Assembly: GCA_016182725.1 (NCBI GenBank) | Contig: JACPFZ010000006.1 | Coordinates: 1-17,059 of the forward strand | Origin: Candidatus Gottesmanbacteria bacterium | GTDB taxonomy: Bacteria > Patescibacteriota > Microgenomatia > UBA10105 > UBA927 | Direction of reading: 5' to 3' | Length of the DNA: 17,059 nt | Shown: in pieces, positions 1-17,059 of the stretch | Position numbering within the stretch: the stretch's first letter is position 1 | How the letters are laid out: each line of letters starts with the position of its first letter | Made by a program: the position numbers and the translations under genes | Notes under the pieces: model-generated | What the model was told of the DNA's origin: nothing | What the model saw: the letters and a program-made list of their open reading frames with translations, nothing else | The model's database searches: none

Positions 1-119
<119 letters not shown>

Positions 120-150
120 GATTTTCTCACATCTGTTGCCGAAAGACGGG

Positions 151-1382: not shown

Positions 1383-1383
1383 T

Positions 1384-2466: not shown

Positions 2467-3152
2467 TCAGGGTTTATTTACGAAAGTTTGGAAAACGTAT
2501 CGTAACAGTTATTCTTATCATTGGACTCACGAGCGGCGTGGGTTTTGTGAGCATGACGTTTTTTACTCTTCAGGCAATAGAAGTAGAAGGATCAGGAATG
2601 CAGGTAGTGATTGATCAAAAAAAACTCACGAGGAACCTCCTTTTTTTCCCAACTGAAAAGCTGCGTACCGAGCTTCTCTCTCAAAATCCTCTTTTAGGAG
2701 ATGTCGTCATTCGAAAGAAGTTTCCTCATACGCTGGTGATTGCGGCAGTGCCACGTAGTCCCATTGCCCATTTACAAACGAAAGAAAGAAAGGTGGATAT
2801 TGACAAAGAGGGCATCGTTCTTCAAGAAAGTTCTCCAGATCATCCTCTCCCAACTCTTCTTTTCGATGTTGAACCTGTACGTACTGGTGAGAAAGTAAGG
2901 GATCCTCGCGTTTTTTCAGGTATCGCCATTCTTACTGCATTTGAGGGCATTTTCCCCATTGATGTGATATCATCTCTTGATAGTCAGTCTTTACAAGTAA
3001 AATCCGGTATATTACGCATATATGTTGTTCAACAAAGCGATATGAAAGCGGTGGCAACCACTTTACAAGTGTTACTGACTGGGTTTAGAATAAAGGGAAC
3101 ATTGCCTGCAGTCATGGATCTTCGTTTTTCTAAACCGGTTGTTACATTTTAA
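2463..3152 (+). CDS. ftsQ: Cell division protein FtsQ/DivIB-like (single TM segment plus POTRA domain)
   Basis: 229-aa ORF whose start overlaps the murG stop (ATGA). It has one N-terminal hydrophobic segment (IVTVILIIGLTSGVGFVSMTFF). A POTRA-like pattern follows (LQAIEVEGSG...FPHTLVIAAVPRSPIAHL...VDIDKEGIVL). It lies directly upstream of ftsA. Confidence 0.7.
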   Translation: MIRVYLRKFGKRIVTVILIIGLTSGVGFVSMTFFTLQAIEVEGSGMQVVIDQKKLTRNLLFFPTEKLRTELLSQNPLLGDVVIRKKFPHTLVIAAVPRSPIAHLQTKERKVDIDKEGIVLQESSPDHPLPTLLFDVEPVRTGEKVRDPRVFSGIAILTAFEGIFPIDVISSLDSQSLQVKSGILRIYVVQQSDMKAVATTLQVLLTGFRIKGTLPAVMDLRFSKPVVTF

Positions 3153-3156
3153 AAAA

Positions 3157-4461
3157 ATGGCGCGCGATCATACTTTTTCCAGCATAGACATAGGAACTTC
3201 AAAAATAACCACGCTTATTGCAACTATTGGCGAGGATGGATATGCAAATGTCATAGGGGTAAGTACGGTTCCCAGTCGGGGCTTGCGGAAAAGCCAAGTG
3301 GTCAATATTGAGGAAGCAACGAGCGCAATATCACAGTCCTTGGAAGCGAGTGAGCGCATGGCAGGAACAAATATTTCGGAAGCTTTTGTTTCCGTGGGAG
3401 GAAATCACATCGCATCATTAAATTCTCATGGTGTGGTAGCGGTGGCAGAACCGGAAAAAGAAATTACCGCGGGTGATGTGAAACGGGTAGTGGAAGCAGC
3501 AAAAGCAGTTTCTCTTTCTTCATCACGAGAAATCATCCACGTTCTTCCACGAGGATATATTGTAGATGGACAAGAAGGAATTGTAGATCCCGTTGGCATG
3601 ACCGGCGTACGACTGGAAGTAGATACACATTTGGTGACTGGTGGATCAACAGCTATTCGAAACCTTCATAAGTGCGTAGAGGAACTTGGGGTGGAAGTAG
3701 CAGGCATGGTATTTAGTGGACTCGCTTCTGCCTACGCGAGTCTTTCTGATACAGAGAAAGAATTAGGAGTTGTGCTTATTGATATCGGCGGTGGGACCAC
3801 GGATGTGGCGATTTTTGTAGAAGGGGCACTTTCTCATTCTTCTGTCATTCCCATAGGCGCTATCAATATTACCAAGGACTTGGCCGCAGGACTGCGCGTG
3901 TCACTGGAGAGTGCGGAGAAAATTAAACTTCTTTTAGGGCAAACTCCCAAGGGCCCGGTACTACCGGAAGATGGCGAAGAACGAGTAACGAAAACAAATA
4001 AAGGAGGGGACGTAAGCGACGAGGTGGATGTGAGTGGCCTTGGGCTTTCCGAGGAAATACGAACAATTTCGCGTAAGACATTAGTGGAAGGAATTATTAA
4101 GCCTCGCCTTAATGAGATTTTTACCTTTGTGGGACTGGAGATTAAACGGAGTGGGTTTGGCGGCATAACACCGTCGGGTGTCGTACTTACCGGCGGAGGC
4201 GCAGAAACCGTTGGAGCGGTTGAGGCGGCGCGCCGGAATTTGGCTATGCCCGTGCACATAAGTATGCCTGCCAGGGTCAACGGACTTATTGATGAAATTA
4301 TGACGCCGGCATTTACGACAGGTGTTGGACTTCTCCTGTATGGTGCGCAAACTAAAAGTGGTGGGGGTGTGTTTGGCAGCGTTGGCAAGATGGGTCAAAA
4401 GATACCAGTGGTATCAGTTGCAGGAAAGGTCATTGATCTGGTAAAGTCATTCTTGCCCTAA
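3157..4461 (+). CDS. ftsA: Cell division protein FtsA (actin-like ATPase)
   Basis: Actin-fold phosphate motifs are present (SSIDIGTSKITT, VLIDIGGGTTDVAIF, VVLTGGGA). The C-terminus looks like an amphipathic membrane-targeting helix (GKVIDLVKSFLP). I prefer ATG 3157 (MARDHTF...) to the track's TTG at 3139, which lies inside ftsQ. Confidence 0.9.
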   Translation: MARDHTFSSIDIGTSKITTLIATIGEDGYANVIGVSTVPSRGLRKSQVVNIEEATSAISQSLEASERMAGTNISEAFVSVGGNHIASLNSHGVVAVAEPEKEITAGDVKRVVEAAKAVSLSSSREIIHVLPRGYIVDGQEGIVDPVGMTGVRLEVDTHLVTGGSTAIRNLHKCVEELGVEVAGMVFSGLASAYASLSDTEKELGVVLIDIGGGTTDVAIFVEGALSHSSVIPIGAINITKDLAAGLRVSLESAEKIKLLLGQTPKGPVLPEDGEERVTKTNKGGDVSDEVDVSGLGLSEEIRTISRKTLVEGIIKPRLNEIFTFVGLEIKRSGFGGITPSGVVLTGGGAETVGAVEAARRNLAMPVHISMPARVNGLIDEIMTPAFTTGVGLLLYGAQTKSGGGVFGSVGKMGQKIPVVSVAGKVIDLVKSFLP

Positions 4462-4506
4462 AAATTTCTGAAACACGAAGTGTTTGCTTCGCAAACCAGA
4501 AATTTT
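4461..4506 (+). promoter_or_regulatory. Compound stem-loop in the ftsA-ftsZ spacer
   Basis: The outer 10-bp stem is AAAATTTCTG (4461-4470) with CAGAAATTTT (4497-4506). Inside it are two mutually exclusive hairpins, AAACAC-gaa-GTGTTT and GTTTGC-ttc-GCAAAC, which share GTTT. No U-tract follows. Confidence 0.4.
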
Positions 4507-4558
4507 CAGGGTAAACCCGTAAGAACTCATTTCCTTCTGCCCTCAATAAATATAGTTT

Positions 4559-5713
4559 ATGCTTATTAAACCAGATATCGCTCGATTTGCCAAAATTAAA
4601 GTTGTTGGTGTAGGTGGGGGTGGTTGCAACGCCATTAACTCCATGATTAGCGTGAATCAAATTAATGGTGTAGATTTTATTGGCGTCAACACCGATGCGC
4701 AGGCGCTCCTTACCTCTCAAGCGGCGGTCAAAGTACAGATCGGAGAAAACTTAACGCGAGGTTTAGGTGCGGGAGGAAATCCGGATCTCGGGCGTCAGGC
4801 AGCCGAGGAGTCAAAAGAAAAACTCAAAGAATATCTTCGAGACGCGGACATGGTGTTTCTGACGTGCGGAGAAGGCGGGGGTACTGGTACCGGAGCAACC
4901 CCGGTGATTGCGGAGCTTGCAAAAGAGCTGGGAGCACTCACTGTTGCGGTGGTCACAAAACCATTTCACTTTGAAGGAACTCGCCGCATGGTTAATGCTG
5001 AAGAAGGCATTATGAACCTTAAAGATAAAGTCGATACGCTTATTGTCATTCCGAATCAGAGACTGCTGGACGTGATTGATAAAAAAATGACCCTCCTGGA
5101 AGCGTTCAGGGTTACTGATTCAGTACTTGGACAGGGGGTACAGGGAATTTCTGATCTTATTACGATGCCTGGGCTTATTAATGTGGATTTTGCCGATGTA
5201 CGTACTATCATGACGAATGCAGGTTCTTCACTCATGGGAATTGGTACGGGTGTTGGAGAAAATCGGGCCGCAACTGCGGCACGTACGGCCATTGCCTCTC
5301 CGCTTTTGGAAATTTCTATAGAAGGTGCACGGGGAATTCTCTTCAATATTACGGGCGGTCCGGATCTGACTATGTCAGAAGTGAATGAAGCTGCCGGACA
5401 GATTGCTTCCGTCGTTGATCCAGATGCGAACATTATTTTTGGCGCAACAATTTCAGAAAACTTGGTTGACCAGGTAAAAATTACCGTCATTGCCACCGGT
5501 TTTGATGAGACGAAAAAGAGATTACGTGAATTATCGAATCGTCCTTCTTACGGATCAACTGTTACTCAACAGCCAACATTTACCAAGCCCGTGACGACAT
5601 ACCTAGCGCCCAGTGTTCAGCCAAAACCTCAATCCGTGACACCAGTTGCCGATGACCTCCCGCCGGAAGAGGACGAATTTGACATTCCCGCCTTCTTGCG
5701 GCAGAAAAGCTAA
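4559..5713 (+). CDS. ftsZ: Cell division GTPase FtsZ
   Basis: [15 protein letters not shown] and the tubulin signature [14 protein letters not shown] are present. A long P/Q/T-rich linker leads to the conserved C-terminal peptide [11 protein letters not shown]. Confidence 0.95.
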
Positions 5714-5716
5714 ATT

Positions 5717-5746
5717 TTGTCATTTTCAGCCTCTTTTTGCTATACT
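5717..5746 (+). promoter_or_regulatory. Putative sigma70-type promoter for ileS (TTGTCA-18 nt-TGcTATACT)
   Basis: TTGTCA lies at 5717-5722, then an 18-nt spacer whose last three bases are TGc (5738-5740), then TATACT at 5741-5746. The ileS ATG (5753) starts 6 nt after the -10 element. Confidence 0.4.
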
Positions 5747-5752
5747 TCACCT

Positions 5753-8707
5753 ATGGCTCATGCCTTTCATCCGGTTAGACCAAACGTCAACTTCCCCGAG
5801 ATGGAGAAGCGGATTTTGACCGAGTGGTATGAACGCGGCATAGTGGACAAGTACCTTCATCGCAATGATGCAGCAAAAAAGCGATTCTCGTTCCTCGATG
5901 GGCCGATTACCGCCAATAATCCCATGGGGGTTCATCATGCGTGGGGCAGAACGTACAAAGACCTCTGGCAAAGATTTTATGCAATGCGCGGCTATAAGGA
6001 GCGGTTCCAAAATGGTTTTGACTGCCAGGGGTTGTGGGTAGAGGTGGAAGTGGAAAAAGAGCTTGGCATTAAAAACAAAAAAGATATTGAAAATCTTGTC
6101 CCGGGCGACTCCAAAGCAAGCATCGCCAAATTTATTGAACTTTGTAAAGCACGTGTCCTCAAATACAGTAGCATCCAAACAGAACAAAGCAAGCGACTTG
6201 GTTACTTCATGGATTGGGATCATTCGTACTTTACGATGTCTGATGAAAATAATTACATGATATGGCATTTTCTCAAGACATGTTTTGAGAAAGGATGGAT
6301 GTATAAAGGTCGCGATAGCGTGCCGTGGTGCCCACGCTGTCAAACCGCTATTTCCCAACACGAAATGCTGACGGAAGACTACAAAGAAGTGTCGCATAAG
6401 GCAATTTACTTTACGCTTCCCATTGTCGGACGGGATAATGAATATCTTTTAGTATGGACGACGACGCCGTGGACGATACCTGCTAATATCGCGGTTGCTG
6501 TTGATGAAAACCTTGACTACGTATTGGTTGAAACAAATGATGGGAAACAATTATGGCTTGCTAAAGACAGACTCGAGGCGGTGATGGGCAAGCAATATCA
6601 GCGCATCATAAAAACGGTAAAAGGGAAGGAACTCGTTGGGCTTTTCTATAAAGGAGCGTTTGATACTCTTCCGGCGGTAGCCCAAACAGCAAAATCCAAT
6701 CGGAAAACATTTCATAAAGTCATACCAACGGATCCGCTTATTTTACCGATTACCGCCACGGAGGGAACAGGATTAGTACACACAGCAGTTTCTGCAGGAA
6801 GTGAAGATTTCAAGCTCGGGAAAAAATACGGATTGCCCATGATTGCGGTGATTGCGGATGATGCGAGTTATCTTCCGAATTTAGGATTTTTAAGCGGCCA
6901 AAATGCAAAAAAACATCCGGAAATCATTCTTGATTATCTCACCGAACGGGAAACTCACGGAGAACACTGGGTCTTTAAAATTGAACAGTATACCCATCGG
7001 TATCCGGCGTGTTGGCGATGCAAAACAGAGCTTGTGTGGAAAGTGGCGGAAGAATGGTACATCGCGATGGACCGTCCTTCGCATAAAGCTTCGGACGGCA
7101 AGCAAACGTTACGTCGGCAGATGGTGGAAGTTGCGAAAAAAATCGATTGGCATCCAAGATTTGGTCTTGAGCGGGAACTTGATTGGCTCACCAACATGCA
7201 TGACTGGCTGATATCAAAACCGAATCGATATTGGGGTCTGGCCATCCCCATCTACGAGTGCCAAAAGTGCGGTTGGTTTACCGTCATCGGGAGTTATGAA
7301 GAATTGAAGGAGCGCGCGGTTTCTGGTTGGAAAGAGTTTGAAGGACACAGTCCCCATAAACCATTTATCGATGAGGTAAAAATTAAATGCGAGAAGTGCG
7401 GAGAAGTCGTGTCGCGACTTGATGATGTCGGAAATGTGTGGTTGGATGCCGGCATCGTTCCGTTTTCTACCTATATTGATCCGGAAACAAAACAACTTAG
7501 TTATACCACCGATAAAAAATACTGGAAACAGTGGTTTCCAGCTGATTTTATTACAGAATCATTTCCCGGACAGTTTAAAAACTGGTTCTACTCGATGATT
7601 GCCATGGCAACGGTTTTAGAAAATAAACATCCATATAAAACTGTTTTGGGGTTTGCTTCTATGCTTGGTGAAGATGGTAGACCTATGCACAAATCATGGG
7701 GCAATGCGATTGAGTTTGGCGAAGGAGCAGACAAAATTGGTGTGGATGTGATGCGTTGGATGTTTGCGACACACGACCCAGAACAAAATCTTCTCTTTGG
7801 ATATAAAAAAGCAGATGAAACGCGCAGGAAATTCCATCTACTCCTTTGGAATGTTTATAATTTTTTCGTAACCTATGCAAATGTGGATGGAATTACGAAT
7901 TATGATTTACGAAGTACGAATGTGCTAGATGAGTGGATAGTAAGCAAACTTAAGGGGTTAGTCAGTGCTGTTACATTGTCGCTTGAGAAATATGACGCGA
8001 TGACTGCGGCAAACAGCATTGAGATATTCGTCACTGATTTATCGCAATGGTATGTGCGAAGATCGCGAGACCGAGTAGGACCAACTGTTGAAAATTCTCT
8101 TGACAAAGAGTCATGTTATGCAACGCTTTACGAGGTTTTAATAACACTCTGTAAACTGCTGGCTCCGTTTACTCCGTTTTTGGCAGAAGAAATATATCAG
8201 AATCTTACAGGTGAAGCATCAGTGCATTTGTCAGATTGGCCTATGGTTGGGATAATTGATACGAAATTACATAAACAAATGGAGATGGTGAGAAAAATTT
8301 GTGAATTGGGGCATGCCATCCGGAAAGAACACAAAATAAAAGTGAGGCAGCCGTTAAAAGAATTACGAATTAAGAATTACGAATTAAGAATAAAAAAAGA
8401 TTTTTTGCAACTTATTACAGATGAATTAAATGTGAAAAACATTATTATTGAAAAAGGAAAAGGGAAGCTTGAGGTGGCATTTGATCTTACGTTAACCCCA
8501 GAGCTCAAAAATGAGGGCGACGCAAGAGAGCTGGTACGGCAAATACAGATACTGCGGAAGGAAAAAGGGTGTAGAATAGATGAGCGAGTCAAGGTACAAT
8601 TGCCCAAGGAATATCAAAGACTTAAGGATCACTTTGATTACATTCGAAAAGAAACATTAGCTGGCTCTATCGTATGGGGAGAATCTTTAAACGTATCGAC
8701 TGGGTAA
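5753..8707 (+). CDS. ileS: Isoleucine--tRNA ligase with divergent class-I signature motifs
   Basis: The ORF runs 5717-8707. The overall architecture is IleRS-like: TTTPWTIPANIAVAV, the WLISKPNRYWGLAIP type motif, Cys pairs CPRC/CWRC and CQKC/CEKC, and DWPMV near the C-terminus. I prefer ATG 5753 (MAHAFHPV...) to the TTG at 5717. Confidence 0.9.
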   Translation: MAHAFHPVRPNVNFPEMEKRILTEWYERGIVDKYLHRNDAAKKRFSFLDGPITANNPMGVHHAWGRTYKDLWQRFYAMRGYKERFQNGFDCQGLWVEVEVEKELGIKNKKDIENLVPGDSKASIAKFIELCKARVLKYSSIQTEQSKRLGYFMDWDHSYFTMSDENNYMIWHFLKTCFEKGWMYKGRDSVPWCPRCQTAISQHEMLTEDYKEVSHKAIYFTLPIVGRDNEYLLVWTTTPWTIPANIAVAVDENLDYVLVETNDGKQLWLAKDRLEAVMGKQYQRIIKTVKGKELVGLFYKGAFDTLPAVAQTAKSNRKTFHKVIPTDPLILPITATEGTGLVHTAVSAGSEDFKLGKKYGLPMIAVIADDASYLPNLGFLSGQNAKKHPEIILDYLTERETHGEHWVFKIEQYTHRYPACWRCKTELVWKVAEEWYIAMDRPSHKASDGKQTLRRQMVEVAKKIDWHPRFGLERELDWLTNMHDWLISKPNRYWGLAIPIYECQKCGWFTVIGSYEELKERAVSGWKEFEGHSPHKPFIDEVKIKCEKCGEVVSRLDDVGNVWLDAGIVPFSTYIDPETKQLSYTTDKKYWKQWFPADFITESFPGQFKNWFYSMIAMATVLENKHPYKTVLGFASMLGEDGRPMHKSWGNAIEFGEGADKIGVDVMRWMFATHDPEQNLLFGYKKADETRRKFHLLLWNVYNFFVTYANVDGITNYDLRSTNVLDEWIVSKLKGLVSAVTLSLEKYDAMTAANSIEIFVTDLSQWYVRRSRDRVGPTVENSLDKESCYATLYEVLITLCKLLAPFTPFLAEEIYQNLTGEASVHLSDWPMVGIIDTKLHKQMEMVRKICELGHAIRKEHKIKVRQPLKELRIKNYELRIKKDFLQLITDELNVKNIIIEKGKGKLEVAFDLTLTPELKNEGDARELVRQIQILRKEKGCRIDERVKVQLPKEYQRLKDHFDYIRKETLAGSIVWGESLNVSTG
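7890..7924 (+). repeat. Five tandem heptamers (GAATTAC GAATTAT GATTTAC GAAGTAC GAATGTG) inside ileS
   Basis: Read directly from the sequence. The consensus is GAATTAC. Confidence 0.6.
8360..8394 (+). repeat. Five tandem heptamers (GAATTAC GAATTAA GAATTAC GAATTAA GAATAAA) inside ileS
   Basis: Read directly from the sequence. The heptamer consensus is the same as at 7890-7924. The array encodes ELRIKNYELRIK. Confidence 0.7.
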
Positions 8708-9675
8708 GCGGCATTTGCATCCTTTGTTTGGCAAGTTTTGGTCTTTTTTTACTCCTTACGGTCGACCAAACACTGTTTCTTCAACAGCTCCTCTTTTTGG
8801 TTATTGCTTTATTGTTTCTTGTTGGAATATCGCTTATTGATTGGACACTGCTTTGGTGGATGGCGCCTGCGGGCTACGTGGGTTCGATACTCTTTCTTTT
8901 TCTTTCCTATTTTGGCCCCTCTATTCTCGCACGTTTTCTTACGCAATATTCACCGCGGAATGTGCGTTTTGTGCCTTTACATATGATACTTTTCCTCATC
9001 CCATTTTTTTTGGTATTGAAACAACCGGACTTAGGAAGTAGTCTCGTTTATGGGGGACTGTGGATTTCTATGCTGGTTGCTTCCGGGTTTCCATTCGGAT
9101 TCCTTGTGGTGTTCGTTGCGTTGGGTGCCTTGTTGCTCCCATTTGGTTGGCATGCACTCGCGGTGTATCAAAAGAGCCGCATTCTCACCTTTCTCAATCC
9201 CGCACTTGATCCAAGAGGAGCGGGTTACAATGCCCTTCAGGCGATGATTGCTGTGGGGAGCGGGCAACTTTTTGGCCGGGGACTGGGTCGAGGAACGCAG
9301 AGCCACCTGCGATTTTTGCCGGAATTCCACACGGACTTTATGTTTGCAACCCTCATTGAGGAGCTTGGGTTTGTCGGCGGTGCATTGCTTTTGGCCGGAT
9401 ACGGGTTTCTTTTGTGGCGCATTCTTTCGCCACTCGTTCGGGGGAGTATCACTGATGCATTTCCATTTATCTATTCCATTGGTCTCTTCGCGACGATTCT
9501 GACGCAAATTTTTATCAATACGGGTATGAATATGGGGCTTATTCCCATAACCGGTATTACGTTGCCGTTCGTTTCCTACGGAGGAAGCTCTCTTCTGTCT
9601 CTTGCTATCTCTTTTGGGTTTCTGTGGGCGCTGCAGCAGCAAAAACGCCAGAGAACAGACATTGCTATCCGATAG
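8674..9675 (+). CDS. rodA: Second SEDS-family protein (RodA-like), missing the RW...QP(S/A)E segment
   Basis: 333-aa polytopic membrane ORF that overlaps the ileS 3' end by 34 nt. SEDS motifs KQPDLGSS, NPALDPRGAGYN, PEFHTDFMFATLIEELGF and LPFVSYGGSSLL are present. Confidence 0.8.
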   Translation: MGRIFKRIDWVSGICILCLASFGLFLLLTVDQTLFLQQLLFLVIALLFLVGISLIDWTLLWWMAPAGYVGSILFLFLSYFGPSILARFLTQYSPRNVRFVPLHMILFLIPFFLVLKQPDLGSSLVYGGLWISMLVASGFPFGFLVVFVALGALLLPFGWHALAVYQKSRILTFLNPALDPRGAGYNALQAMIAVGSGQLFGRGLGRGTQSHLRFLPEFHTDFMFATLIEELGFVGGALLLAGYGFLLWRILSPLVRGSITDAFPFIYSIGLFATILTQIFINTGMNMGLIPITGITLPFVSYGGSSLLSLAISFGFLWALQQQKRQRTDIAIR

Positions 9676-9690
9676 AACAATTGATATACT
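9662..9690 (+). promoter_or_regulatory. Putative promoter for rplU (TTGCTA-17 nt-TGaTATACT)
   Basis: TTGCTA lies at 9662-9667, then a 17-nt spacer whose last three bases are TGa (9682-9684), then TATACT at 9685-9690. The rplU ATG (9697) starts 6 nt after the -10 element. Confidence 0.4.
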
Positions 9691-9696
9691 ACGGGC

Positions 9697-10005
9697 ATGT
9701 TTGCTGTTGTTATCATTGCAGGAAAACAATATAAAGTAACCCCAGGAGATCGAGTGGTGGTTGATCGCCTCAAGAGAAACGTAGGCGATACCGTGGTATT
9801 GCAAGACGTGCTTTTGGCGGGCAACGGCAAGACCCTGGTGGGAGCTCCAACGCTGCCAAATATTTCAGTGAAAGCCAAGATTCTCTCCCATGAAAAAGGA
9901 GAAAAGGTTGAAGTCCGACGGTTTAAGTCGAAAGTCCGCTATCGCAGGCACATCGGATTCCGTCCGTTGCGTACCAAACTTGAGATTCTTTCTGTTGGCG
10001 CCTAA
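9697..10005 (+). CDS. rplU: 50S ribosomal protein L21
   Basis: 102 aa. MFAVVIIAGKQYKVTPGD...HEKGEKVEVRRFKSKVRYRRHIGFRP matches the bL21 pattern. Confidence 0.9.
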   Translation: MFAVVIIAGKQYKVTPGDRVVVDRLKRNVGDTVVLQDVLLAGNGKTLVGAPTLPNISVKAKILSHEKGEKVEVRRFKSKVRYRRHIGFRPLRTKLEILSVGA

Positions 10006-10011
10006 AAGGTC

Positions 10012-11205
10012 ATGAACTCCTGGATCATCGTGTTGGGGGCAGCGCGCAGTCTTGCTCGCGCGGAACTTCATGCGCTTCTTCCTTCTTCTCTTTTCGTTCC
10101 TCTTTCCGGGTCTTGTATGTTTTTGGAAGAATCTCGTGATGTTTCTGCAGAAACACTGCAAGAGGTTGCCGGCGGAGTGGTGAAAATCGCGGAAGTTGTT
10201 GGCGAGGTAGCCATCGTCACACCGGGGGAACTTGCCGAAATTCTTCTCAGTAGTAGCATTGATCAGCAAAAAATTACTTTTGGCGTCAGTCGCTATGACG
10301 GAGACGTTGTTTCTTTGCCGTGGCTGCGAGAAATAAAGGCCCAGCTCTCGCGCGCAGGGAAAAAGGCACGTTTTATCTCTTCCCCAGACGGGATACTTTC
10401 GAGCGTGGTTGTCCAAAAGGAACACATGCAGGAGCTAGTCGTGGCAAAGAGAGGGGATCACGTTTTGATCGGCCTTACGGCTACGGTGCAGGACTTTGAA
10501 GCGTGGAACAAGCGTGATTACGGCCGGCCGTATGCAGATCCGAAGTCTGGTATGTTGCCGCCAAAGGTGGCAAGAATGGCGGTCAATATTGCCCTTAAAA
10601 ATTCGGAAATTTTTCAGGGTAAACCAGTTCAGGTGTTTACGATTCTTGATCCATTTTGCGGCATGGGGACCATCCTAGCTGAAGCATTGTTGCGGGGGTG
10701 TCACGTGATCGGCAGTGATCAGTCAGAGGAAGTTATCGCAAAAGCCCGCAAAAATCTTGAGTGGCTTACGCATGATTCCCGGAATCGAGGTACTTTGATT
10801 CCGGGAATCGAATTACCGAGCGTACAACTTTTAGTAAGCGATGCAACCCATGTATCACATAAGCTTAGACCGAATAGTATCGATGCAATTGTCACCGAAC
10901 CCCATATGGGTACGCCGGCACTGGGCGAGCGACGGGTTACTGATCCGGAAAAAATTCGCAATGTTGTTAAAGGCCTGGAAAAATTGTACATTGGAGCACT
11001 TCGGGATTGGGTAGATGTTCTTAAGCCTAGAGGAAACGTTGTTATTGCGTTGCCCCAGTTCAGCCTCGAGGGGAAAACATATTTTGTGAAAAAGGTAGTT
11101 GACAGTTGTGAAAAGCTTGGCTATACTATGGGAGCTGGTCCTATAGAATATAGCAGACCACAGGCAGTCGTGCGAAGACAATTTTTCGTATTCACGAAAA
11201 ATTGA
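10012..11205 (+). CDS. Class I SAM-dependent RNA methyltransferase, Trm11/RlmL-like (UPF0020 type), with atypical motif IV
   Basis: 397 aa. GRPYADPKSGMLPPKVARMAVNIA is the substrate-arm pattern of Trm11/RlmL-type N2-guanine methyltransferases. SAM motif I is ILDPFCGMGTILAEA. Motif IV reads DAIVTEPHMG instead of (D/N)PPY. Confidence 0.65.
   Translation: MNSWIIVLGAARSLARAELHALLPSSLFVPLSGSCMFLEESRDVSAETLQEVAGGVVKIAEVVGEVAIVTPGELAEILLSSSIDQQKITFGVSRYDGDVVSLPWLREIKAQLSRAGKKARFISSPDGILSSVVVQKEHMQELVVAKRGDHVLIGLTATVQDFEAWNKRDYGRPYADPKSGMLPPKVARMAVNIALKNSEIFQGKPVQVFTILDPFCGMGTILAEALLRGCHVIGSDQSEEVIAKARKNLEWLTHDSRNRGTLIPGIELPSVQLLVSDATHVSHKLRPNSIDAIVTEPHMGTPALGERRVTDPEKIRNVVKGLEKLYIGALRDWVDVLKPRGNVVIALPQFSLEGKTYFVKKVVDSCEKLGYTMGAGPIEYSRPQAVVRRQFFVFTKN
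11179..11204. repeat. Perfect 11-bp inverted repeat with a 4-nt loop across the methyltransferase stop codon
   Basis: CAATTTTTCGT (11179-11189), loop attc, then ACGAAAAATTG (11194-11204). The stop TGA is at 11203-11205. Confidence 0.6.
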
Positions 11206-11210
11206 ATTTA

Positions 11211-11281
11211 ACAAATACTACAAATAAACAAATCCGACAAATGAAAACATTTGTAGTATTTATAGTATTGGTAGTATTTGT
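11211..11281. repeat. 71-bp imperfect AT-rich palindrome with ~9-nt periodic motifs, directly upstream of rpmA
   Basis: The outer arms are ACAAATACTAC (11211-11221) and GTAGTATTTGT (11271-11281). The inner arms are ACAAATG (11237-11243), AAAA, CATTTGT (11248-11254). ACAAAT starts at 11211, 11220, 11228 and 11237. TAGTATT starts at 11254, 11263 and 11272. A T-rich run follows (ATATTTTT, 11282-11289). Confidence 0.6.
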
Positions 11282-11294
11282 ATATTTTTGAGAT

Positions 11295-11540
11295 ATGGCA
11301 CATGTCAAAGCAGGGGGGGTCGCAAAAGGGAATAAAGACTCTGTTTCCAAGCGCTTAGGAGTCAAAATTTTTGGCGGTCAGGTAGCAATCCCCGGCAATA
11401 TCATCGTTCGGCAAAAAGGAACCAAGGTATATCCTGGCCAGGGTGTCAGTATGGGTCGGGATTCTACGCTTTTTGCAATAGCGAAAGGAAAAGTAACGTT
11501 TTTGACAAAGCGAGGAAAGCAGTTCGTTTCTGTCCAATAA
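11295..11540 (+). CDS. rpmA: 50S ribosomal protein L27
   Basis: 81 aa. [24 protein letters not shown]...[16 protein letters not shown] matches bL27. It starts at the mature AHKK-type N-terminus, with no Prp-cleaved extension. Confidence 0.9.
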
Positions 11541-11553
11541 TTTCGCGAAAAAA

Positions 11554-12363
11554 ATGGCGGATACACAACAGATTCTTCACTTGGATATTGAACTCATTCA
11601 ACCAAATCCGTTGCAACCCCGAGGGCTCATTCCTCCCGATTCTCTTCGTGATCTTGTCGAGTCACTCCGCGAGCACGGCATTATTGAACCGTTGGTTGTA
11701 GCGAAAACCCCGGCAGGGTATCAGATTATTGCGGGTGAGAGGCGCTGGCGTGCGGCGAAACTTGCGGGTTTAACTACCGTACCGGTGGTCATTAGAGAAA
11801 CGACGTCTCGGGGAATGCTCGAGATGGCGATTGTCGAGAATGTCCAACGCGAAGATTTAAACCCCATCGAACGAGCTCAGGCATTCCAACGGCTGATTGA
11901 AGAGTTTGGGTTGCCACTCACGGAAATATCCAAAAGGATTTCCAAGAGCGAGTCGTACGTTTCCAATACGATACGTCTTTTGGCGCTTCCTGATGCAATT
12001 AAAGACGGACTTATCTCCCAGGCAATCTCTGAAGGTCACGCCCGTGCTATTGCAGGACTTGGCGATGTAAAGCTCATGGTAGATGCATATAAGACGATTC
12101 TTTCGGAAAGCGCATCCGTTCGCCGGGCAGAAGACTTGGCGCGCCGACTCAAGGCCCAGTACGACAAAAAGCCAACGATGCGCGTCGAGCGAATTCACAG
12201 CGACGAGTTGGATGCCATGGCAAAAGACTTGGCCCAGTCGGTCAATGGATTAGTAAAGATTACGCAATCAAAAGTAGAAGCGCGCATTGTATTTGTCATC
12301 CGCGGTAACCTGGAAACGACGAGCGATACTTTAAAAAAGATTCACCAGAAGTTAAAGCAGTGA
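11554..12363 (+). CDS. parB: ParB/Spo0J-family partition protein
   Basis: 269 aa. It has the ParB N-terminal box LIQPNPLQPR, the arginine patch IIAGERRWRAAKLAG, and the HTH LTEISKRISKSESYVSNTIRLL. Confidence 0.85.
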   Translation: MADTQQILHLDIELIQPNPLQPRGLIPPDSLRDLVESLREHGIIEPLVVAKTPAGYQIIAGERRWRAAKLAGLTTVPVVIRETTSRGMLEMAIVENVQREDLNPIERAQAFQRLIEEFGLPLTEISKRISKSESYVSNTIRLLALPDAIKDGLISQAISEGHARAIAGLGDVKLMVDAYKTILSESASVRRAEDLARRLKAQYDKKPTMRVERIHSDELDAMAKDLAQSVNGLVKITQSKVEARIVFVIRGNLETTSDTLKKIHQKLKQ

Positions 12364-12372
12364 TCTTTTCTG

Positions 12373-12936
12373 TTAGAAAAAATACGTGGGTCGGGAAATG
12401 AGGCCAACTCGAGAAAATGGCCAGTACCGAAGCAGTGCCTTCCCGATAAAATCTTCTTTTGCAATAGGGCCAAACTCACGCGCATCGGAGCTATGCGGCC
12501 GATTGTCTCCCACGACGAAGTATTTGCCGGGCGGGACGACCACCTCACTGTTTTCTCGTAAATAGGATCCTCCAAAAGTATAGACGCCCGGCGTGAGGTA
12601 TGGTTCATCAAGTTTTTGACCATTGATAAAAAACGTGCTACTCGATAGGCGCACGGTTTCGCCGGGCAACGCAATGACGCGTTTGATAAAGTCCACTTCT
12701 TTGTTTCTGGGTGATTTGAAAACAACCACGTCACCGCGCTTTGGATCGAGAAATTTGTATTCAATTTTGTTGGTGAGGATAAATTCGCCATTATGAAAGT
12801 TCGCCTCCATGGACGCGCCGCTAATTTCCTGCGGCGACATGATGAAAAGGTAGATCATGACCATGATGGCAAGGACCACCACAATGGACTGGAGAAAATC
12901 AAAAACAGCGGCTACTGCGCGCTTTATTAAGTTCAT
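12373..12936 (-). CDS. lepB: Signal peptidase I
   Basis: It has an N-terminal TM segment, the catalytic Ser box ISGASMEANF, the Lys box DFIKRVIALPGETV, and GDNRPHSSDAREFG. I prefer ATG 12936 (MNLIKRAV...), which has AGGAA 7 nt upstream, to the track's TTG at 12984. Confidence 0.85.
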   Translation of the reverse strand: MNLIKRAVAAVFDFLQSIVVVLAIMVMIYLFIMSPQEISGASMEANFHNGEFILTNKIEYKFLDPKRGDVVVFKSPRNKEVDFIKRVIALPGETVRLSSSTFFINGQKLDEPYLTPGVYTFGGSYLRENSEVVVPPGKYFVVGDNRPHSSDAREFGPIAKEDFIGKALLRYWPFSRVGLISRPTYFF

Positions 12937-12963
12937 ACGAATTTCCTGTATCTTCAGTGTAGG

Positions 12964-12972
12964 TGATATAAT
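12964..12972 (+). promoter_or_regulatory. Extended -10 element (TGaTATAAT) upstream of the tRNA locus
   Basis: TG lies at 12964-12965 and TATAAT at 12967-12972, about 28 nt upstream of the first tRNA nucleotide (13001). The same AT-rich block read on the minus strand gives TATTAT upstream of lepB, so the two promoters may be divergent and back to back. Confidence 0.4.
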
Positions 12973-13000
12973 AAGAGTCGTCAATCCCGTTGTTTCCTTT

Positions 13001-13182
13001 GGGCGGTTAGCTCAGCGGTAGAGCACTTCGTTGACACCAGCCCGCCGAAATGAGCCCATAGCTCAGTGGTAGAGCGTTTCGTTGACATCGAAAAGGTCGA
13101 TGGTTCAAATCCATCTGGGCTCACAGAGAGGCGAATGCTGGCGCGGTCGAAGGGGTCGTTGGTTCAAATCCAACGTCGTCCA
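13001..13182 (+). tRNA. Interrupted tRNA-Val(GAC)-like gene: 5' half 13001-13036, 3' half 13147-13182, 110-nt intervening sequence after position 37. It may instead be two tRNA remnants.
   Basis: 5' half: GGGCGGT TA GCTC AGCGGTA GAGC A CTTCG TTGACA. 3' half: T CGAAG GGGTC GTTGG TTCAAAT CCAAC GTCGTCC A. Joined, they form a 72-nt cloverleaf. The anticodon stem pairs 5/5 Watson-Crick, the T stem 5/5 and the D stem 4/4. The acceptor pairs 7/7 (4 Watson-Crick plus 3 G.U). Confidence 0.4.
13052..13123 (+). tRNA. tRNA-Val (anticodon GAC)
   Basis: The manual cloverleaf is GAGCCCA TA GCTC AGTGGTA GAGC G TTTCG TTGACAT CGAAA AGGTC GATGG TTCAAAT CCATC TGGGCTC A. All stems are fully Watson-Crick and the discriminator is A. 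No CCA is encoded. Confidence 0.85.
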
Positions 13183-13183
13183 C

Positions 13184-15139
13184 CTACCGAAGTAGATCTT
13201 CTTTGAGATATGCGGGATCGAAGCGAAATGTGGAAATTTCGGGAAGTTTAGAACTGCGGGGATATTCTTTCCACAAAACTTTCCCGTTTTCCAAAAACTG
13301 CGCAATGATAAGCCGAGCGTTTTCGCCTTTTGGTAAAAATCGAAGTTTGTACGATCCAGCCCTAGGGTTAAATATCGTAATGAGGCTTTCGTTATCTTTC
13401 CGCATGGATCCTGCGGGGTCCGTGAGCCACAGGTCGGCAGGGTAGCCCATGATAACGAGTGCGGATGTTGGCTCCACAAAGGACGCTGTACTGACGCTTG
13501 TTGCTCCCATCCCTAGAAAATTGAGAATTTCGTTTATGCCCTGGCCTGATGAGACAAGTCCATTGTGTGGCTGGGGAACGCGCAGATATGTAGCGCCGTC
13601 AACCTCGCTGCTTGTTAAAAGTACCGTGCCGTCGCCGTCGGTGGTTGTACGTCGTAGGAGTGGTTTGCCGTCTGTCCAATCACCGCGGCGTGTATCCAGA
13701 CGGCTTGGCGGTTTGACCACAAGCTCATGCAATGTCTCAAATCCAGTGCCGGAAAGCGTGCCAACGGTGACGCCGTAAAAAGGAGGGGTAAATCTAGTGG
13801 TAGGTAGCCAGTTATTTTGCGCGTCCATCTCTATGACCGGCTTTACCGCACCGGTTCGAAAGTCCTTGAGGTAGTCGAATACCGGAAGTAAATTTTGTAC
13901 CGATGGGATTACTCGGCGGATGGTTTCGCGGTTGTTGGGACGAATAGTGTCACATAGACGAAGAGCTATCGTCATGAGCATCTTATTACGTAGATTATCT
14001 TCCCAAATCTCGCCGCCGGACCACGCGGGATAGGCAAGAACGTTGCCTTTGTGTGGGGATCCGACGGTGAGGAGTTTATCGAGTTTGTTGGCATCTGCCT
14101 GTGCTTCCAAGTACGCGCGGCCGAGAAGCCCTCCCATGCTATGGCCAACCAGATGCACATTTTCCCCTTCTTGTTGGATCGCTGCATCGATGACGCCTGC
14201 AAGTGGTGCGGCATGGGTAGTCACTTGTTTTCGCCAATCGTAGTAGTAGGGAATGGTCGTCCACCCGGCATCGGTAAGCGCAGTCAACAGTGGATTGTAG
14301 ACGTCCGCTGCTTGGTCGTTAAGCGTCCAATCACCCTCGTAGCCTTCGGTTTTGCAGTTCATGATCGCATCTTTATTCCAACTGGCCCCAAACCCCGGAA
14401 TCACCACGACTTTGGTGACGGGAATCGGAGTTGGTGTGGGGGTAGGAGTTGGCATCGGAGTCGGAGTTGAGGTGGGCGTAGGGGAAGGAGCATCGCACCC
14501 ACCGCTATCGCAAAGTTGAAAATTAGCAAATTCTGTATTACCGTTTGCATATTTAAGACGGACAATATCTGGAGTAAAATTAAAACCGTTATCCCACGAG
14601 CCTAAAATATTACCATCTTCAATTAATATCATGTTAGAACTAATACAGTGAAGTTCGAAACTGTGAACACCTAGGGATTTATCCCAAAACATCGTTGGAG
14701 AACCTAATCCACCACCGTTTTGAAAAGCTTCGAAATTAAAAGTTCCATTGTCTCTTAAGACGACTCTTTTTTCGTTTGCCGGAAAAGACGAGCTATAATC
14801 CTTACATGAAAATAGCACCAAGGAAGGAGAAGAGTTGATTTTAATATCAATCTTAACAATCTCATCGGATGGCAAATAAGAAGGAATAGATATTAAACCA
14901 TACTCGATACCGTTATTTGTGTCGCCTATGCCAAACATTGACGGGGTAGGAGCAGTAGTATACGGTTCTACTGTCCACAATGAAGTATTGTAACCACCGG
15001 AAAAAGAATCGTAAAAAACAGTAGAAGCATTGACTTTAGAAGTATTAGTAAAGAAGAATACTACGGCTAATAAAAATAGAAAAAAATATTTTTTCGTAAT
15101 TTCTGCCTCTAATACTAGAGTAAATATTATAGGAATCAA
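13184..15139 (-). CDS. Secreted multidomain protein: signal peptide, ConA/LamG-like lectin domain, PT linker, LCAT/PGAP1-type alpha/beta-hydrolase (lipase/acyltransferase), C-terminal beta-rich domain
   Basis: 651-codon ORF. The hydrophobic leader YFFLFLLAVVFFF ends in VNA|S. FYDSFSGGYNTSLW is a ConA-like N-terminal pattern. The linker is PSPTPTSTPTPMPTPTPTPTPIP. The hydrolase has VVVIPGFGAS, YYYDWRK (LCAT-family YDWR), the nucleophile elbow VGHSMGG, then GSPHKG, DGDGTV and PQPHNG. The start is uncertain: TTG 15139 in the track, or ATT 15100 (see findings). Confidence 0.75.
   Translation of the reverse strand: MIPIIFTLVLEAEITKKYFFLFLLAVVFFFTNTSKVNASTVFYDSFSGGYNTSLWTVEPYTTAPTPSMFGIGDTNNGIEYGLISIPSYLPSDEIVKIDIKINSSPSLVLFSCKDYSSSFPANEKRVVLRDNGTFNFEAFQNGGGLGSPTMFWDKSLGVHSFELHCISSNMILIEDGNILGSWDNGFNFTPDIVRLKYANGNTEFANFQLCDSGGCDAPSPTPTSTPTPMPTPTPTPTPIPVTKVVVIPGFGASWNKDAIMNCKTEGYEGDWTLNDQAADVYNPLLTALTDAGWTTIPYYYDWRKQVTTHAAPLAGVIDAAIQQEGENVHLVGHSMGGLLGRAYLEAQADANKLDKLLTVGSPHKGNVLAYPAWSGGEIWEDNLRNKMLMTIALRLCDTIRPNNRETIRRVIPSVQNLLPVFDYLKDFRTGAVKPVIEMDAQNNWLPTTRFTPPFYGVTVGTLSGTGFETLHELVVKPPSRLDTRRGDWTDGKPLLRRTTTDGDGTVLLTSSEVDGATYLRVPQPHNGLVSSGQGINEILNFLGMGATSVSTASFVEPTSALVIMGYPADLWLTDPAGSMRKDNESLITIFNPRAGSYKLRFLPKGENARLIIAQFLENGKVLWKEYPRSSKLPEISTFRFDPAYLKEDLLR
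14420..14491 (-). repeat. Low-complexity Pro/Thr linker coding repeat
   Basis: The plus strand shows reiterated GGAGTTGG/GGTGTGGG units. On the minus strand it encodes APSPTPTSTPTPMPTPTPTPTPIP (aa 217-240 of the ORF). Confidence 0.8.
15126..15131 (-). promoter_or_regulatory. Perfect TATAAT hexamer (minus strand) upstream of the lipase signal peptide
   Basis: Minus strand 15146-15095 reads TTGACA-attgattcc-TATAAT-atttactctagtatta-GAGG-cagaa-ATT-ACG. The -35-like hexamer is only 9 nt from the -10, so it cannot act as a standard -35/-10 pair. Confidence 0.3.
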
Positions 15140-15175
15140 TTGTCAAGTACCAATAATTTTAGTAGACTCGGTTCT

Positions 15176-15571
15176 ATGAAATCCCAAACTTGTTATCTCT
15201 GCAACAGCACACGAGGTCACCTTCTTTGGAAAAAAAATAATTTCAATATAGTTCAATGCGATTTATGTGGCTTCATTTACGTTACTCCGCTTCCATCAAG
15301 AGTTTCTCTAGATAAGTTTTATAAAACATTTGATTATAAAAATGTAATCGAAGCTGAAAAAGTTATCCGAAAAGATGCAGAGCAAAGTCTAAAGAAAATC
15401 GAGAAATTTCAGCAAAGGAGAACACTGCTGGATTTGGGTTGTGGAAGAGGATTGCCTTTAATCAAAAGGCTTAAGTACTTACTTTTCGATAGGGTTGTTT
15501 GCGGGTTATTATATAGAATATTGAATTTTGATCATTGGGGAACAAAGTTAGAAATAATTGGGGCTAAATAA
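15176..15571 (+). pseudogene. N-terminal remnant of a Zn-ribbon plus class I SAM methyltransferase, ending shortly after motif I
   Basis: From ATG 15176 it reads MKSQTCYLCNS...IVQCDLCGFIYVTP (CxxC...CxxC), then LLDLGCGRG (motif I), and stops about 45 codons later with no post-I motifs. It is a paralog of the N-terminus of the 16288 gene (MRCYCG...IVQCLACDQVRTITP). The track ORF 15140-15571 starts at a TTG. Confidence 0.5.
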
Positions 15572-15575
15572 TAAT

Positions 15576-16319
15576 ATGAAACTTTCTGTCGTGATGATAA
15601 CTAATAATGCAGGAGAAGTAATTGGAGGAGCTCTAGCAAGCATTCATGGTTTATGGAGTGAATTGTTAATTAACGATGATGCAAGTACCGATGGGACAAG
15701 GCGGATTGCAGAGCGGTATGGTGCGAAGATATTTACGCTTAAAAATAAAAATCTCGGGGAACGGAAACAGTGGTTGATCACTAAAGCACGAGGAGACTGG
15801 GTGCTTATATTAGATGGCGACGAGCGCGTATCAAAAGAACTTGGCCAGGAAATAAAAAAAGTTATTTCGCATAACGATACCATCCGGGGATACCACATAC
15901 CGTATCAGAATTACGTGTTTGGGAAGCCGGTGTATTGGGGAGGCGAGCGGTATAGCAAAGTACGATTGTTCCGGAGGGGATACGGGAAGATTACTCCTCT
16001 TCAACTCCACGAGGAAGTGATAGTGAAGGGAGAAGTTGGAACGCTTCAAGGCGTTATTCATCACCATTCCTTTCGAACACCCATACAACTATTTAGCAAA
16101 TTTACCAACTATGCCCGGATTGCCGCTAAGGAAAAGAAACGACACGGCGAGACCCTGTCACTCGCCAAACTTTTTTTGTATGCACCACATATGTTTTGGG
16201 CCAGATTTATTAAAGAAAAAGGATATAAAGATGGCTGGCGAGGATTTGTGTTGGCGTTTGCATTCGCTTATATGGAAGGATTAACGTATGCGATGCTATT
16301 GTGGGGCAAAAGATCATAA
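15576..16319 (+). CDS. Family 2 glycosyltransferase (KdtX/WaaE-like, ~250-aa class)
   Basis: It has MKLSVVMITNNAGEVI, LINDDASTDGTRRIAERYGAKI, GDWVLILDGDERVS (DxD) and a C-terminal amphipathic/TM tail. I prefer ATG 15576 to the TTG at 15558. Confidence 0.85.
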   Translation: MKLSVVMITNNAGEVIGGALASIHGLWSELLINDDASTDGTRRIAERYGAKIFTLKNKNLGERKQWLITKARGDWVLILDGDERVSKELGQEIKKVISHNDTIRGYHIPYQNYVFGKPVYWGGERYSKVRLFRRGYGKITPLQLHEEVIVKGEVGTLQGVIHHHSFRTPIQLFSKFTNYARIAAKEKKRHGETLSLAKLFLYAPHMFWARFIKEKGYKDGWRGFVLAFAFAYMEGLTYAMLLWGKRS

Positions 16320-16899
16320 ATTACTTTTTTGCGCAAGTAGCTATCAGATTGTGCAATGCCTTGCTTGTGATCAGGTGCGAACGATAACTCCATCAAAGAT
16401 AGAGAGAAAACAGATATATAATAAGGAAGATATCTCTGTGTATATTGAGAAAGAAGTGATGTTTCGGTTGCTTTTTAAGCGAATTGTTGATTTTATAAAA
16501 CAATATAAAAAGGACGGAACCTTTGTAGATATTGGCGCAGGGGTCGGATTACTGGTGGATGAAGCGCGCCGTGCTGGATTCGATGCTTCGGGTATTGAAC
16601 CATCACTTTCTGCTGTAAGGGCGGCGAGGAAATTTTTCCACATTCAGTTATTGCATACAAAATTTACTGAAAAGTCGATGAAAAAACCAGTCGACATTGT
16701 CGTTCTTAATCACGTGTTGGAACACCTGCCAAATCCTCATGCGGTGATTCGGACCATAGCAAATGTTTTAGAAAAAGATGGTCTTTTAGTGATCGGTGTG
16801 CCAAATTTTGGTAGTATCATGTCTCTTCTTAAAAAAAGTCGTTGGCAATCTCTTGTCCTAGACCAACATCGTTGGCACTTTACCCAAAAAAACACTTGA
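16288..16899 (+). CDS. Zn-ribbon plus class I SAM-dependent methyltransferase, ended prematurely by a frameshift at an A7 tract
   Basis: It has CYCG...CLAC, motif I FVDIGAGVGLLV, FDASGIEPS, VDIVVLNHVLEHLPNP and LLVIGVPN. The stop at 16897-16899 follows the A7 run at 16886-16892. The start overlaps the GT2 3' end by 32 nt. Confidence 0.75.
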   Translation: MRCYCGAKDHKLLFCASSYQIVQCLACDQVRTITPSKIERKQIYNKEDISVYIEKEVMFRLLFKRIVDFIKQYKKDGTFVDIGAGVGLLVDEARRAGFDASGIEPSLSAVRAARKFFHIQLLHTKFTEKSMKKPVDIVVLNHVLEHLPNPHAVIRTIANVLEKDGLLVIGVPNFGSIMSLLKKSRWQSLVLDQHRWHFTQKNT

Positions 16900-17059
16900 C
16901 CAATTAGTGTTACCTTTGGGCTTTAAGAAACTGGGAACAACTGGAGAAAATCATGATCGATCGATGCATACGTTTTGGAAACGGCCGATATACCGGATGA
17001 TTGATATGCTAGCGTTATTAACGAATAGAGAGGAAGCAATATTAGTAGTATATTGGAAA
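16892..17059 (+). other. Open continuation of the methyltransferase in the -1 frame (56 codons, runs off the window)
   Basis: Removing one A from the A7 tract gives ...HFTQK-TLDQLVLPLGFKKLGTTGENHDRSMHTFWKRPIYRMIDMLALLTNREEAILVVYWK with no stop up to 17059. This looks like a plausible methyltransferase C-terminal extension. Confidence 0.6.

Follow-up and report, generated by a model that had tools for sequence, protein, structure and literature searches.

Contig JACPFZ010000006.1 of a Candidatus Gottesmanbacteria genome (assembly GCA_016182725.1) carries, within the 17,059 nucleotides (nt) analysed here (positions 1 to 17,059, hereafter the window), a complete tRNA-Val(GAC) gene lodged inside the anticodon loop of a second, interrupted tRNA-Val(GAC) sequence. 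All parts lie on the plus strand. The 5′ half of the outer sequence (O5, 13001–13036) comprises tRNA positions 1–37 and the 3′ half (O3, 13147–13182) positions 38–73, with 110 nt between them: a 15-nt left flank (13037–13051), the complete tRNA (13052–13123), whose CCA end is not encoded, and a 23-nt right flank (13124–13146). The left flank consists of the 5′ arm of a GC-rich palindromic repeat (CCAGCCCGCC) followed by the 5-nt linker GAAAT, and the right flank of the linker CAGAGA followed by the 3′ arm of the repeat (GGCG-AAT-GCTGG-CGCGG). The break falls exactly at 37|38, the canonical site, with neither loss nor duplication of a base, and the junction sequences (TTGACA|CCAGCC on the left, GCGCGG|TCGAAG on the right) share no direct repeat. 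A preliminary description of this DNA had delineated the halves, the inner tRNA, the break point and the pairing between the flanks, and on these points the sequence, ARAGORN, Rfam and the predicted fold all agree with it. It had also proposed that the outer halves form a functional split or intron-containing tRNA or, failing that, the residue of a decayed tandem array, and it is here that our analysis departs from it.

The inner tRNA scored 75.9 bits against Rfam RF00005 (E 2e-15; gathering score 29), was typed by ARAGORN as Val(gac) and has an acceptor stem of seven Watson–Crick pairs; it was the only tRNA that either program called in the window. Allowing introns in ARAGORN again returned the inner gene alone from the genomic region, and lowering the score threshold gave more than 100 spurious calls. 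Joined in silico, 13001–13036 and 13147–13182 form a sequence of 72 nt, which ARAGORN identifies as tRNA-Val(gac) and which scored 67.7 bits with a hidden Markov model (HMM) of the tRNA-Val genes of relatives, compared with 72.2 bits for the inner tRNA. The outer sequence thus scores as a tRNA and cannot be dismissed on a low score, as the preliminary description had allowed it might. Taken separately in local nhmmer searches, O5 matched model positions 2–36 (30.2 bits, E 2.5e-9) and O3 positions 37–73 (21.5 bits, E 1.3e-6). The unconstrained minimum-free-energy fold of 13001–13183 (−70.2 kcal/mol) is a nested double cloverleaf, in which the flank pairs CCAGC/GCTGG and CGCC/GGCG form a stalk beneath the inner tRNA. 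The arrangement is not a chimera of assembly, since independent assemblies carry both junctions: the 5′ junction (from the 5′ half through the leader into the beginning of the inner tRNA) is present in Logan contigs of three other runs and the 3′ junction (end of the inner tRNA, trailer, 3′ half and lipase gene) in a fourth Logan contig. Sequencing runs SRR12113383, SRR12113422, SRR12113424 and SRR12113430 contain the organism.

Two flanking proteins served as syntenic anchors for fetching orthologous intergenic regions, which were oriented like the window: signal peptidase I (gene at 12373–12936, minus strand; PF10502, E 2.8e-49; 100% identical to protein P0121) and a lipase-like alpha/beta hydrolase encoded by a convergent gene (13184–15139, minus strand; Pfam LCAT, PGAP1 and Abhydrolase families). 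The loci came from 16 species-level Gottesmanbacteria genomes, from two metagenome contigs reached via the hydrolase and from four closer relatives reached via the signal peptidase (80–88% identity); the comparison set comprised 21 related loci, or 22 with the window. Each related locus holds one complete tRNA-Val(GAC), always after the promoter block, and none holds a tandem tRNA-Val array. The genes themselves differ strikingly, with about ten acceptor-stem types at the syntenic site among loci whose signal peptidases are 63–88% identical (GGGCGGT, GGACGAC, GGACTCG, GGACCCG, GACCACT, GCGCGCA, GGGTGCA/GGGCGCA, GGATCCA and GGATCGT, and GAGCCCA for the inner tRNA of the window). In the relative with the most similar signal peptidase (88% identity) the tRNA-Val gene is of another type, single and without a nest, and the inner tRNA sequence of the window was absent from every other locus fetched.

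Two of these gene types account for the outer halves. Type A stands intact at the syntenic site in L006, L013 and L159 (acceptor GGGCGGT, 3′ strand ACCGCCC), and type B in L008 and L011 (GGACGAC...GTTGG/CCAAC...GTCGTCC). O5 is identical to the type A 5′ halves of L013, L006 and L159 at 36/36 positions, compared with 30–31/36 for type B, whereas O3 matches the type B 3′ halves at 34/36 (L008) and 32/36 (L011) positions, compared with 28–29/36 for type A. A CCAACGTCGTCCAC end like that of O3 also lies beside the lipase gene of L005, as a type B 3′ remnant. The outer halves therefore derive from different tRNA-Val lineages. This bears on the acceptor stem of the joined sequence, for which the preliminary description counted seven pairs, four Watson–Crick and three G.U. 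The count is correct and includes G3.U70, but the pairs are no sign of selection for pairing: the three differences between GGGCGGT and GGACGAC are all transitions and lie at positions 3, 6 and 7, which are the three G.U positions, so that the G.U pairs arise because a type A 5′ strand faces a type B 3′ strand of similar sequence. All 21 complete tRNA-Val genes of the relatives have 6–7 Watson–Crick acceptor pairs and at most one G.U, with G3.U70 in none. G3.U70 is the major identity element of alanine tRNAs and would be a liability in a tRNA for valine.

Fragments of another tRNA-Val accompany the complete gene at 11 of the 22 loci, or 10 of the 21 relatives. Their polarity is strictly nested: the upstream fragments (window, L014, L016, L017, L018, L022 and L023) are all 5′ parts and the credible downstream fragments (window, L005, L013, L014, L017, L018, L022, L160/161 and L162) all 3′ parts, a pattern explained if fragments come from insertion into a resident gene. 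Most of these pieces are plainly defunct, being decayed, truncated or furnished with hairpin insertions; that of L023 is cut within the D arm, and L013, L018, L160 and L162 have hairpins inside the remnant T arm or in its place. The outer arrangement of the window is kept in none of the 21 related loci, and its halves are the best preserved among the remnant-bearing loci. The insertion event in the window was probably recent, because O5 is still identical to type A while the adjoining spacer between promoter and tRNA has diverged from that of L159. L014 shares the junction of the window (TTGACA|CC.G.C.GCC) with its own 5′ remnant decayed and the D arm lost. A single ancestral insertion shared by the two loci fits poorly with the contrast between the pristine O5 of the window and the decayed remnant of L014, and independent site-specific events or conversion more likely account for both junctions.

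The flanks of the inner tRNA belong to a repeat family with the consensus CCCGCCCGCC-ACGCAAGCC...GGCTTGCGA-GGCG-TT-GCGGG-CGGGG. The repeat occurs without a tRNA inside it in L005, L131, L132, L134, L135, L145, L147, L152 and L153, and diverged homologous arms occur in L014 and L023. The third left-arm base and its pairing partner change together (A–T in the window, T–A in L005, C–G elsewhere). Within the window the pattern CCMGCCCGCC occurs once, at the junction (0.04 expected), and the two-arm pattern likewise once (0.00 expected). Judged by these comparisons, the stalk is the hairpin of a repeat family whose apical part is swapped for a complete tRNA.

In four of the 22 syntenic loci the nest also holds a nuclease gene. 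In L016, L017 and L018 the 5′ remnant and the complete tRNA flank an open reading frame (ORF) of about 82 amino acids (aa), which encodes a GIY-YIG domain at residues 1–71 (PF01541, E 1.5e-15 to 3.2e-16), and L162 has at the same position an ORF annotated by Pfam as GIY-YIG, of another subfamily. We scanned metagenomes with these proteins, which gave 334 relatives, and read 80 loci carrying 68 distinct genes. Relatives of 57–80% identity sit upstream of tRNAs with at least ten anticodons (Val GAC, CAC and TAC; Ile GAT; Asp GTC; Lys CTT and TTT; Arg CCT and TCT; His GTG), and a complete tRNA on the same strand follows the ORF within 30 nt in 29 of the 62 loci with room downstream and within 200 nt in 39 of them. 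Upstream of the ORF a fixed order recurs in 31 of the 63 loci with room for it: a tRNA 5′ fragment consisting of the acceptor strand and the D stem up to GGTT, a palindromic hairpin of 40–60 nt placed exactly in the D loop, AGAGC plus 8–18 nt, and the start codon. The hairpin is either of type 1 (ACCCGnnCAAATTT...AAATTTGnnCGGGT) or of a GC-rich type 2. The upstream fragment significantly matched the 5′ end of the complete tRNA itself in 18 of 38 testable loci, often perfectly over 18–22 nt, and the remaining testable loci include some in which it comes from a different tRNA. Downstream of the tRNA, 3′ remnants were found in L112, L125, L134, L095, L096 and L083. Their architecture and patchy distribution suggest that these GIY-YIG proteins may act as homing endonucleases.

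Several details of these loci deserve separate record. Among the metagenome loci L077–L156 (for example L077 1927–2330, L152 1916–2323 and L153 989–1473) genes of about 82 aa lie −1 to +25 nt upstream of complete tRNAs, and in L018, L077 and others the stop codon of the nuclease ORF is formed by T8-A9-G10 of the tRNA or by a D-loop TAG; where the ORF runs into the tRNA in this way, RNase P cleavage would therefore truncate the nuclease mRNA. A type-1 hairpin (CCCGAACAAATTT...CTTGCGCGGG) occupies the anticodon loop of the 3′ remnant of L017 (about 479–541 in the oriented sequence; also found downstream of the L079 tRNA), flanked by a TTGA duplication, and resembles an insertion of the type made by miniature inverted-repeat transposable elements (MITEs), targeting loop DNA. 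In L112 (about 2442–2590) the complete tRNA-Val(CAC) is followed by a second, near-full-length tRNA-Val(CAC) with a 40-nt D-loop hairpin and mismatched acceptor strands. A further GIY-YIG ORF, distinct from these and 101 aa long (PF01541, E 2.9e-5; GIY_YIG_2, E 1.2e-4), lies on the minus strand of L008, about 330–24 nt downstream of the intact type B tRNA-Val. A phage vector for the family is unsupported, given that the IMG/VR viral contigs contained no relative of it. A role in RNA metabolism, suggested for a prokaryotic Slx1-like GIY-YIG domain fused to TrmH, the tRNA Gm18 (D-loop) methyltransferase (PMC1564403), is a possible alternative function for small GIY-YIG proteins encoded beside D-loop hairpins.

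We interpret the locus as a working tRNA-Val(GAC) nested in the dead halves of an older tRNA-Val, the result of a mobile tRNA-replacement cassette of which the window holds a nuclease-less copy, and assign this reading a probability of roughly 70%. One part of it, namely that an insertion left the outer halves behind as remnants without function, we hold with confidence. The short cassette would consist of the replacement tRNA-Val between palindromic-repeat arms and would have landed at 37|38 of the resident gene; its motor would be a GIY-YIG nuclease, either supplied in trans or lost in the meantime. Such an element could invade an essential tRNA gene because the replacement copy comes along with it. 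The chimeric halves would follow from break and repair, with an intact type A gene broken in its anticodon loop and repaired from a type B allele already bearing the cassette, the conversion tract running rightwards through the 3′ remnant of the donor. Gene conversion after a break in the type A gene is the most likely route to the chimeric halves that these alignments suggest. Since the window itself lacks a GIY-YIG gene, a role for the nuclease at this site is argued from the homologous architecture of other nests, and we put the proposition that a GIY-YIG homing process produced this particular nest somewhat short of even odds.

Several observations weigh against this interpretation. Both halves are pristine and fold with the insert into a perfect nested double cloverleaf, as would be expected of a functional arrangement too, and the joined outer sequence passes both ARAGORN and the HMM. 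No GIY-YIG-like motif appeared in the six-frame translation of the window, and the 110-nt insert is too small to encode such a nuclease. The GIY-YIG proteins of the related nests consist of the catalytic domain only, without the DNA-binding domain of the I-TevI or Seg type; among solved structures they come closest to the UPF0213 family, whose function is unknown, and they scored 24.6 bits with the NCBIfam model of group I intron endonucleases (TIGR01453), for which the cutoff is 56. Finally, a conversion history of a single event is just one among several histories that fit the chimeric halves.

The most durable alternative is a nest made without any nuclease, in which a small MITE-like palindrome that targets hairpin loops hit the anticodon loop and captured a tRNA at its apex, or in which the flanks were shuffled by homologous recombination after uptake of DNA. 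It differs from the favoured reading in the motor alone, and both hold the outer halves to be dead. In its favour are the insert ends, which are palindromic-repeat arms with a tRNA in place of the apical part, the related hairpins found in remnants (in their D, anticodon or T loops, in one case with the TTGA duplication) and the lack of a GIY-YIG gene in the window. However, the metagenome hairpins are tightly linked, in fixed order, to GIY-YIG genes and complete tRNAs, four syntenic Gottesmanbacteria loci hold the nuclease gene within the nest, and no transposase is present. We regard it as unlikely on these grounds.

A functional interrupted tRNA-Val, from whose transcript the 110-nt insert would be removed by RNase P and RNase Z, or by another endonuclease, before ligation of the halves, for example by RtcB, is very improbable. 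What recommends it is the anatomy itself (the 37/38 break, complete and undecayed halves, the tRNA-like joined sequence, the double cloverleaf on its stalk) together with covariation of the stalk, which extends across the repeat family, and the odd non-intron insertions in rRNA genes of the candidate phyla radiation (CPR), some of which encode GIY-YIG proteins (PMC11270868). However, the halves belong to different tRNA lineages, their acceptor stem with three G.U pairs including G3.U70 is unlike that of any relative's tRNA-Val, and the arrangement is conserved in no relative. At the orthologous loci the outer pieces decay independently, truncated or filled with hairpins, and without covariation, the outcome that the preliminary description had itself set beforehand as speaking against a functional outer gene. 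Moreover, nothing would select for the outer tRNA because a working copy with the same anticodon is nested within it. The enzymology is no more favourable: RNase P and RNase Z leave 5′-phosphate and 3′-OH ends, here with tails of 15 and 23 nt, and such ends are by textbook knowledge not substrates of RtcB, nor would the 7-nt anticodon loop be restored. No splicing endonuclease is known from the bacterial host, and neither EndA nor RtcB is among the genes of the 17-kb window.

Nor does the insert resemble a group I intron or an archaeal tRNA intron, as the preliminary description had recognized. Rfam returned no intron, ribozyme or other non-tRNA family at E ≤ 1 in 12940–13240, apart from an antisense match to the Plastid-ycf2 5′ untranslated region RNA (13052–13124, minus strand; 33 bits against a gathering score of 65.7), which is just the antisense of the tRNA. 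The preliminary description had likewise failed to build an archaeal bulge-helix-bulge, and none can form here: the 3′ end of the insert, GCTGGCGCGG, cannot pair with the anticodon-loop bases as a 4-bp central helix, and the stalk is continuous instead.

Decay of a tandem array of paralogous tRNA-Val genes, the other explanation offered in the preliminary description, would mean that deletions happened to leave a complete gene between a 5′ and a 3′ half. The three pieces are indeed of three different sequence types, and CCGCC at 13042–13046 can also pair with GGCGG at 13002–13006. However, no array exists in the relatives, each of which has exactly one complete tRNA-Val, and two independent deletions would have had to end at the exactly complementary positions 37 and 38. 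Array decay should leave 3′ parts upstream and 5′ parts downstream just as readily, whereas the polarity is strictly nested, and the flanks of the insert are those of a repeat family, not of spacers between tRNAs. We consider this history highly unlikely. Least credible of all is an integration or excision scar of a genomic island or prophage (attL/attR remnants), for although integrases classically target the anticodon loops of tRNAs and islands leave incomplete tRNA copies behind (textbook knowledge), the outer pieces here complement each other and do not duplicate a core, have no direct repeats at the junctions and are only 110 nt apart, no integrase is found among the window ORFs, and upstream 5′ remnants are unlike the traces of islands that restore the 3′ end.

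Expression of the inner gene would rely on an older promoter. The preliminary description had noted an extended −10 element upstream of the nest and a gap of 1 nt between the nest and the lipase gene, and both were confirmed: the element (TGATATAAT) lies at 12964–12972 on the plus strand and has a predicted promoter function, and between the end of the nest (13182) and the lipase stop codon (13184–13186) there is only position 13183. The promoter block gtgtaggtgatataat is conserved at equal distance in most of the 21 related loci, and the element probably drives the whole tRNA locus. Consensus scans found neither a plus-strand sigma-70 promoter with a −35 element nor an intrinsic terminator. 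Since the 15-nt leader is too short for another promoter, the inner gene presumably uses this old conserved one. O5 and the left arm would then form a 51-nt leader that is cut off by RNase P, and the right arm and O3 a trailer lost in 3′ processing; CCA would be added afterwards, as it is not encoded, and the outer 'tRNA' would never be reassembled. We judge from its sequence that 13052–13123 is the working tRNA-Val(GAC) of the locus. The element overlaps a divergent promoter for the signal peptidase gene, seen as a promoter-like minus-strand site (TTGACG-17-TACACT), and this face-to-face promoter block (12950–12990) is strongly kept in L006–L023 and L157–L162 despite repeated replacement of the tRNA behind it.

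Beyond this locus, the metagenome nests raise the prospect that CPR bacteria (Patescibacteria) carry undescribed selfish 'bring-your-own-copy' elements, composed of a hairpin, a minimal GIY-YIG gene and a complete tRNA, that home into D or anticodon loops. They would kill the resident tRNA, substitute their own copy and leave nested 5′ and 3′ remnants. We advance this generalization tentatively, as a proposal with slightly less than an even chance of being right. In the searched literature, which was limited in coverage, neither tRNA-fused GIY-YIG genes nor nested remnants of tRNAs were found described for CPR bacteria; the cassette family appears to be undescribed there, and its novelty is provisional.

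Parallels can be drawn with several known systems. Homing endonuclease genes usually hide in self-splicing introns or inteins of essential genes, or sit beside genes. SegB, encoded in the tRNA gene cluster of T4, and other free-standing (intron-less) GIY-YIG homing endonucleases of T4-like phages resemble the proposed elements in that the gene adjoins tRNA genes and is inferred to spread by cutting a nuclease-less allele, with repair copying the nuclease gene and its flanks (PMC2330249); chimeric flanks such as those of the window would follow from co-conversion in this kind of spread. SegB is, however, a multi-domain, site-specific phage enzyme encoded between intact tRNA genes without nested remnants (PMC2330249), whereas the proteins described here are of about 82 aa, catalytic-domain-only and chromosomal in CPR, with the gene joined to a replacement tRNA inside a broken resident. 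In 'fractured genes' a homing endonuclease gene likewise lies between two halves of a host gene, both of which remain functional via split inteins (PMC2677866), whereas rescue here would come from a complete extra copy.

The same host group has non-intron insertions in its rRNA genes (CPR), where short hairpin-like inserts occupy loops of structural RNAs and where all GIY-YIG proteins found lay in insertions resembling neither intron group (PMC11270868). That survey concerned rRNA genes and did not mention tRNA, and in our case the interrupted copy would be abandoned and replaced, not processed. Archaeal tRNA introns and split tRNAs share with the window the 37/38 interruption and the complementary leader and trailer, and the archaeal tRNA-Trp intron holds a box C/D RNA, likewise a structured RNA inside an interruption (PMC4090602, PMC4390854); they differ from it in having a bulge-helix-bulge, halves that have co-evolved and a conserved arrangement. 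Bacterial group I introns also interrupt anticodon loops, sometimes with a homing endonuclease gene (bioRxiv 10.1101/2020.01.27.920355), but the present insert is only 110 nt long, lacks a ribozyme core or Intron_gpI match (E ≤ 1) and is itself a tRNA. The proposed cassettes have in common with tRNA-targeting integrative elements the use of an essential tRNA as a landing site, restoration of function by the incoming DNA and partial copies left as scars. Those elements carry a copy of the tRNA segment that they displace. Integration by them depends on tyrosine integrases and duplicates a short 3′ core, and their length is in the kilobase range, whereas here a whole tRNA is supplied by a 110-nt insert, both old halves are kept and neither integrase nor core repeat is found.

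Were the cassette interpretation correct, it would represent a possible third way into essential RNA genes, in which the resident is broken and a full substitute delivered in one cassette. It would account for the roughly ten unrelated-looking tRNA-Val sequences at one site in close Gottesmanbacteria, would imply that CPR tRNA genes are rapidly replaced by horizontal (xenologous) copies (those seen here being for Val, Ile, Asp, Lys, Arg and His) and would give the widespread UPF0213-type minimal GIY-YIG proteins a concrete, testable role. For annotation, the locus illustrates that a plausible tRNA assembled in silico from two half-tRNAs is no proof of a split gene or of one with an intron. Taken singly it is a pseudogene scar around an ordinary tRNA, and its broader value is as a pointer to a widespread cassette family.

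The surroundings of the syntenic site vary as well. In L005 (1050–1712 and 3860–4322), the closest relative by hydrolase (70% identity), the signal peptidase gene is inverted and a transposase of the IS1595 family lies nearby; the tRNA-Val sequences on this contig are solely 3′ remnants, of two successive types, one with a type-2 hairpin in its T arm. A small ORF of 74–87 aa stands between the tRNA and the hydrolase or next gene in L006 (5848–6072), L157 (2178–2408) and L160 (1382–1645); the window lacks it, and the 3′ remnant abuts the hydrolase stop codon there. Elsewhere the window encodes, according to Pfam, FtsW, MurG, FtsA, IleRS and ParB in addition to the signal peptidase.

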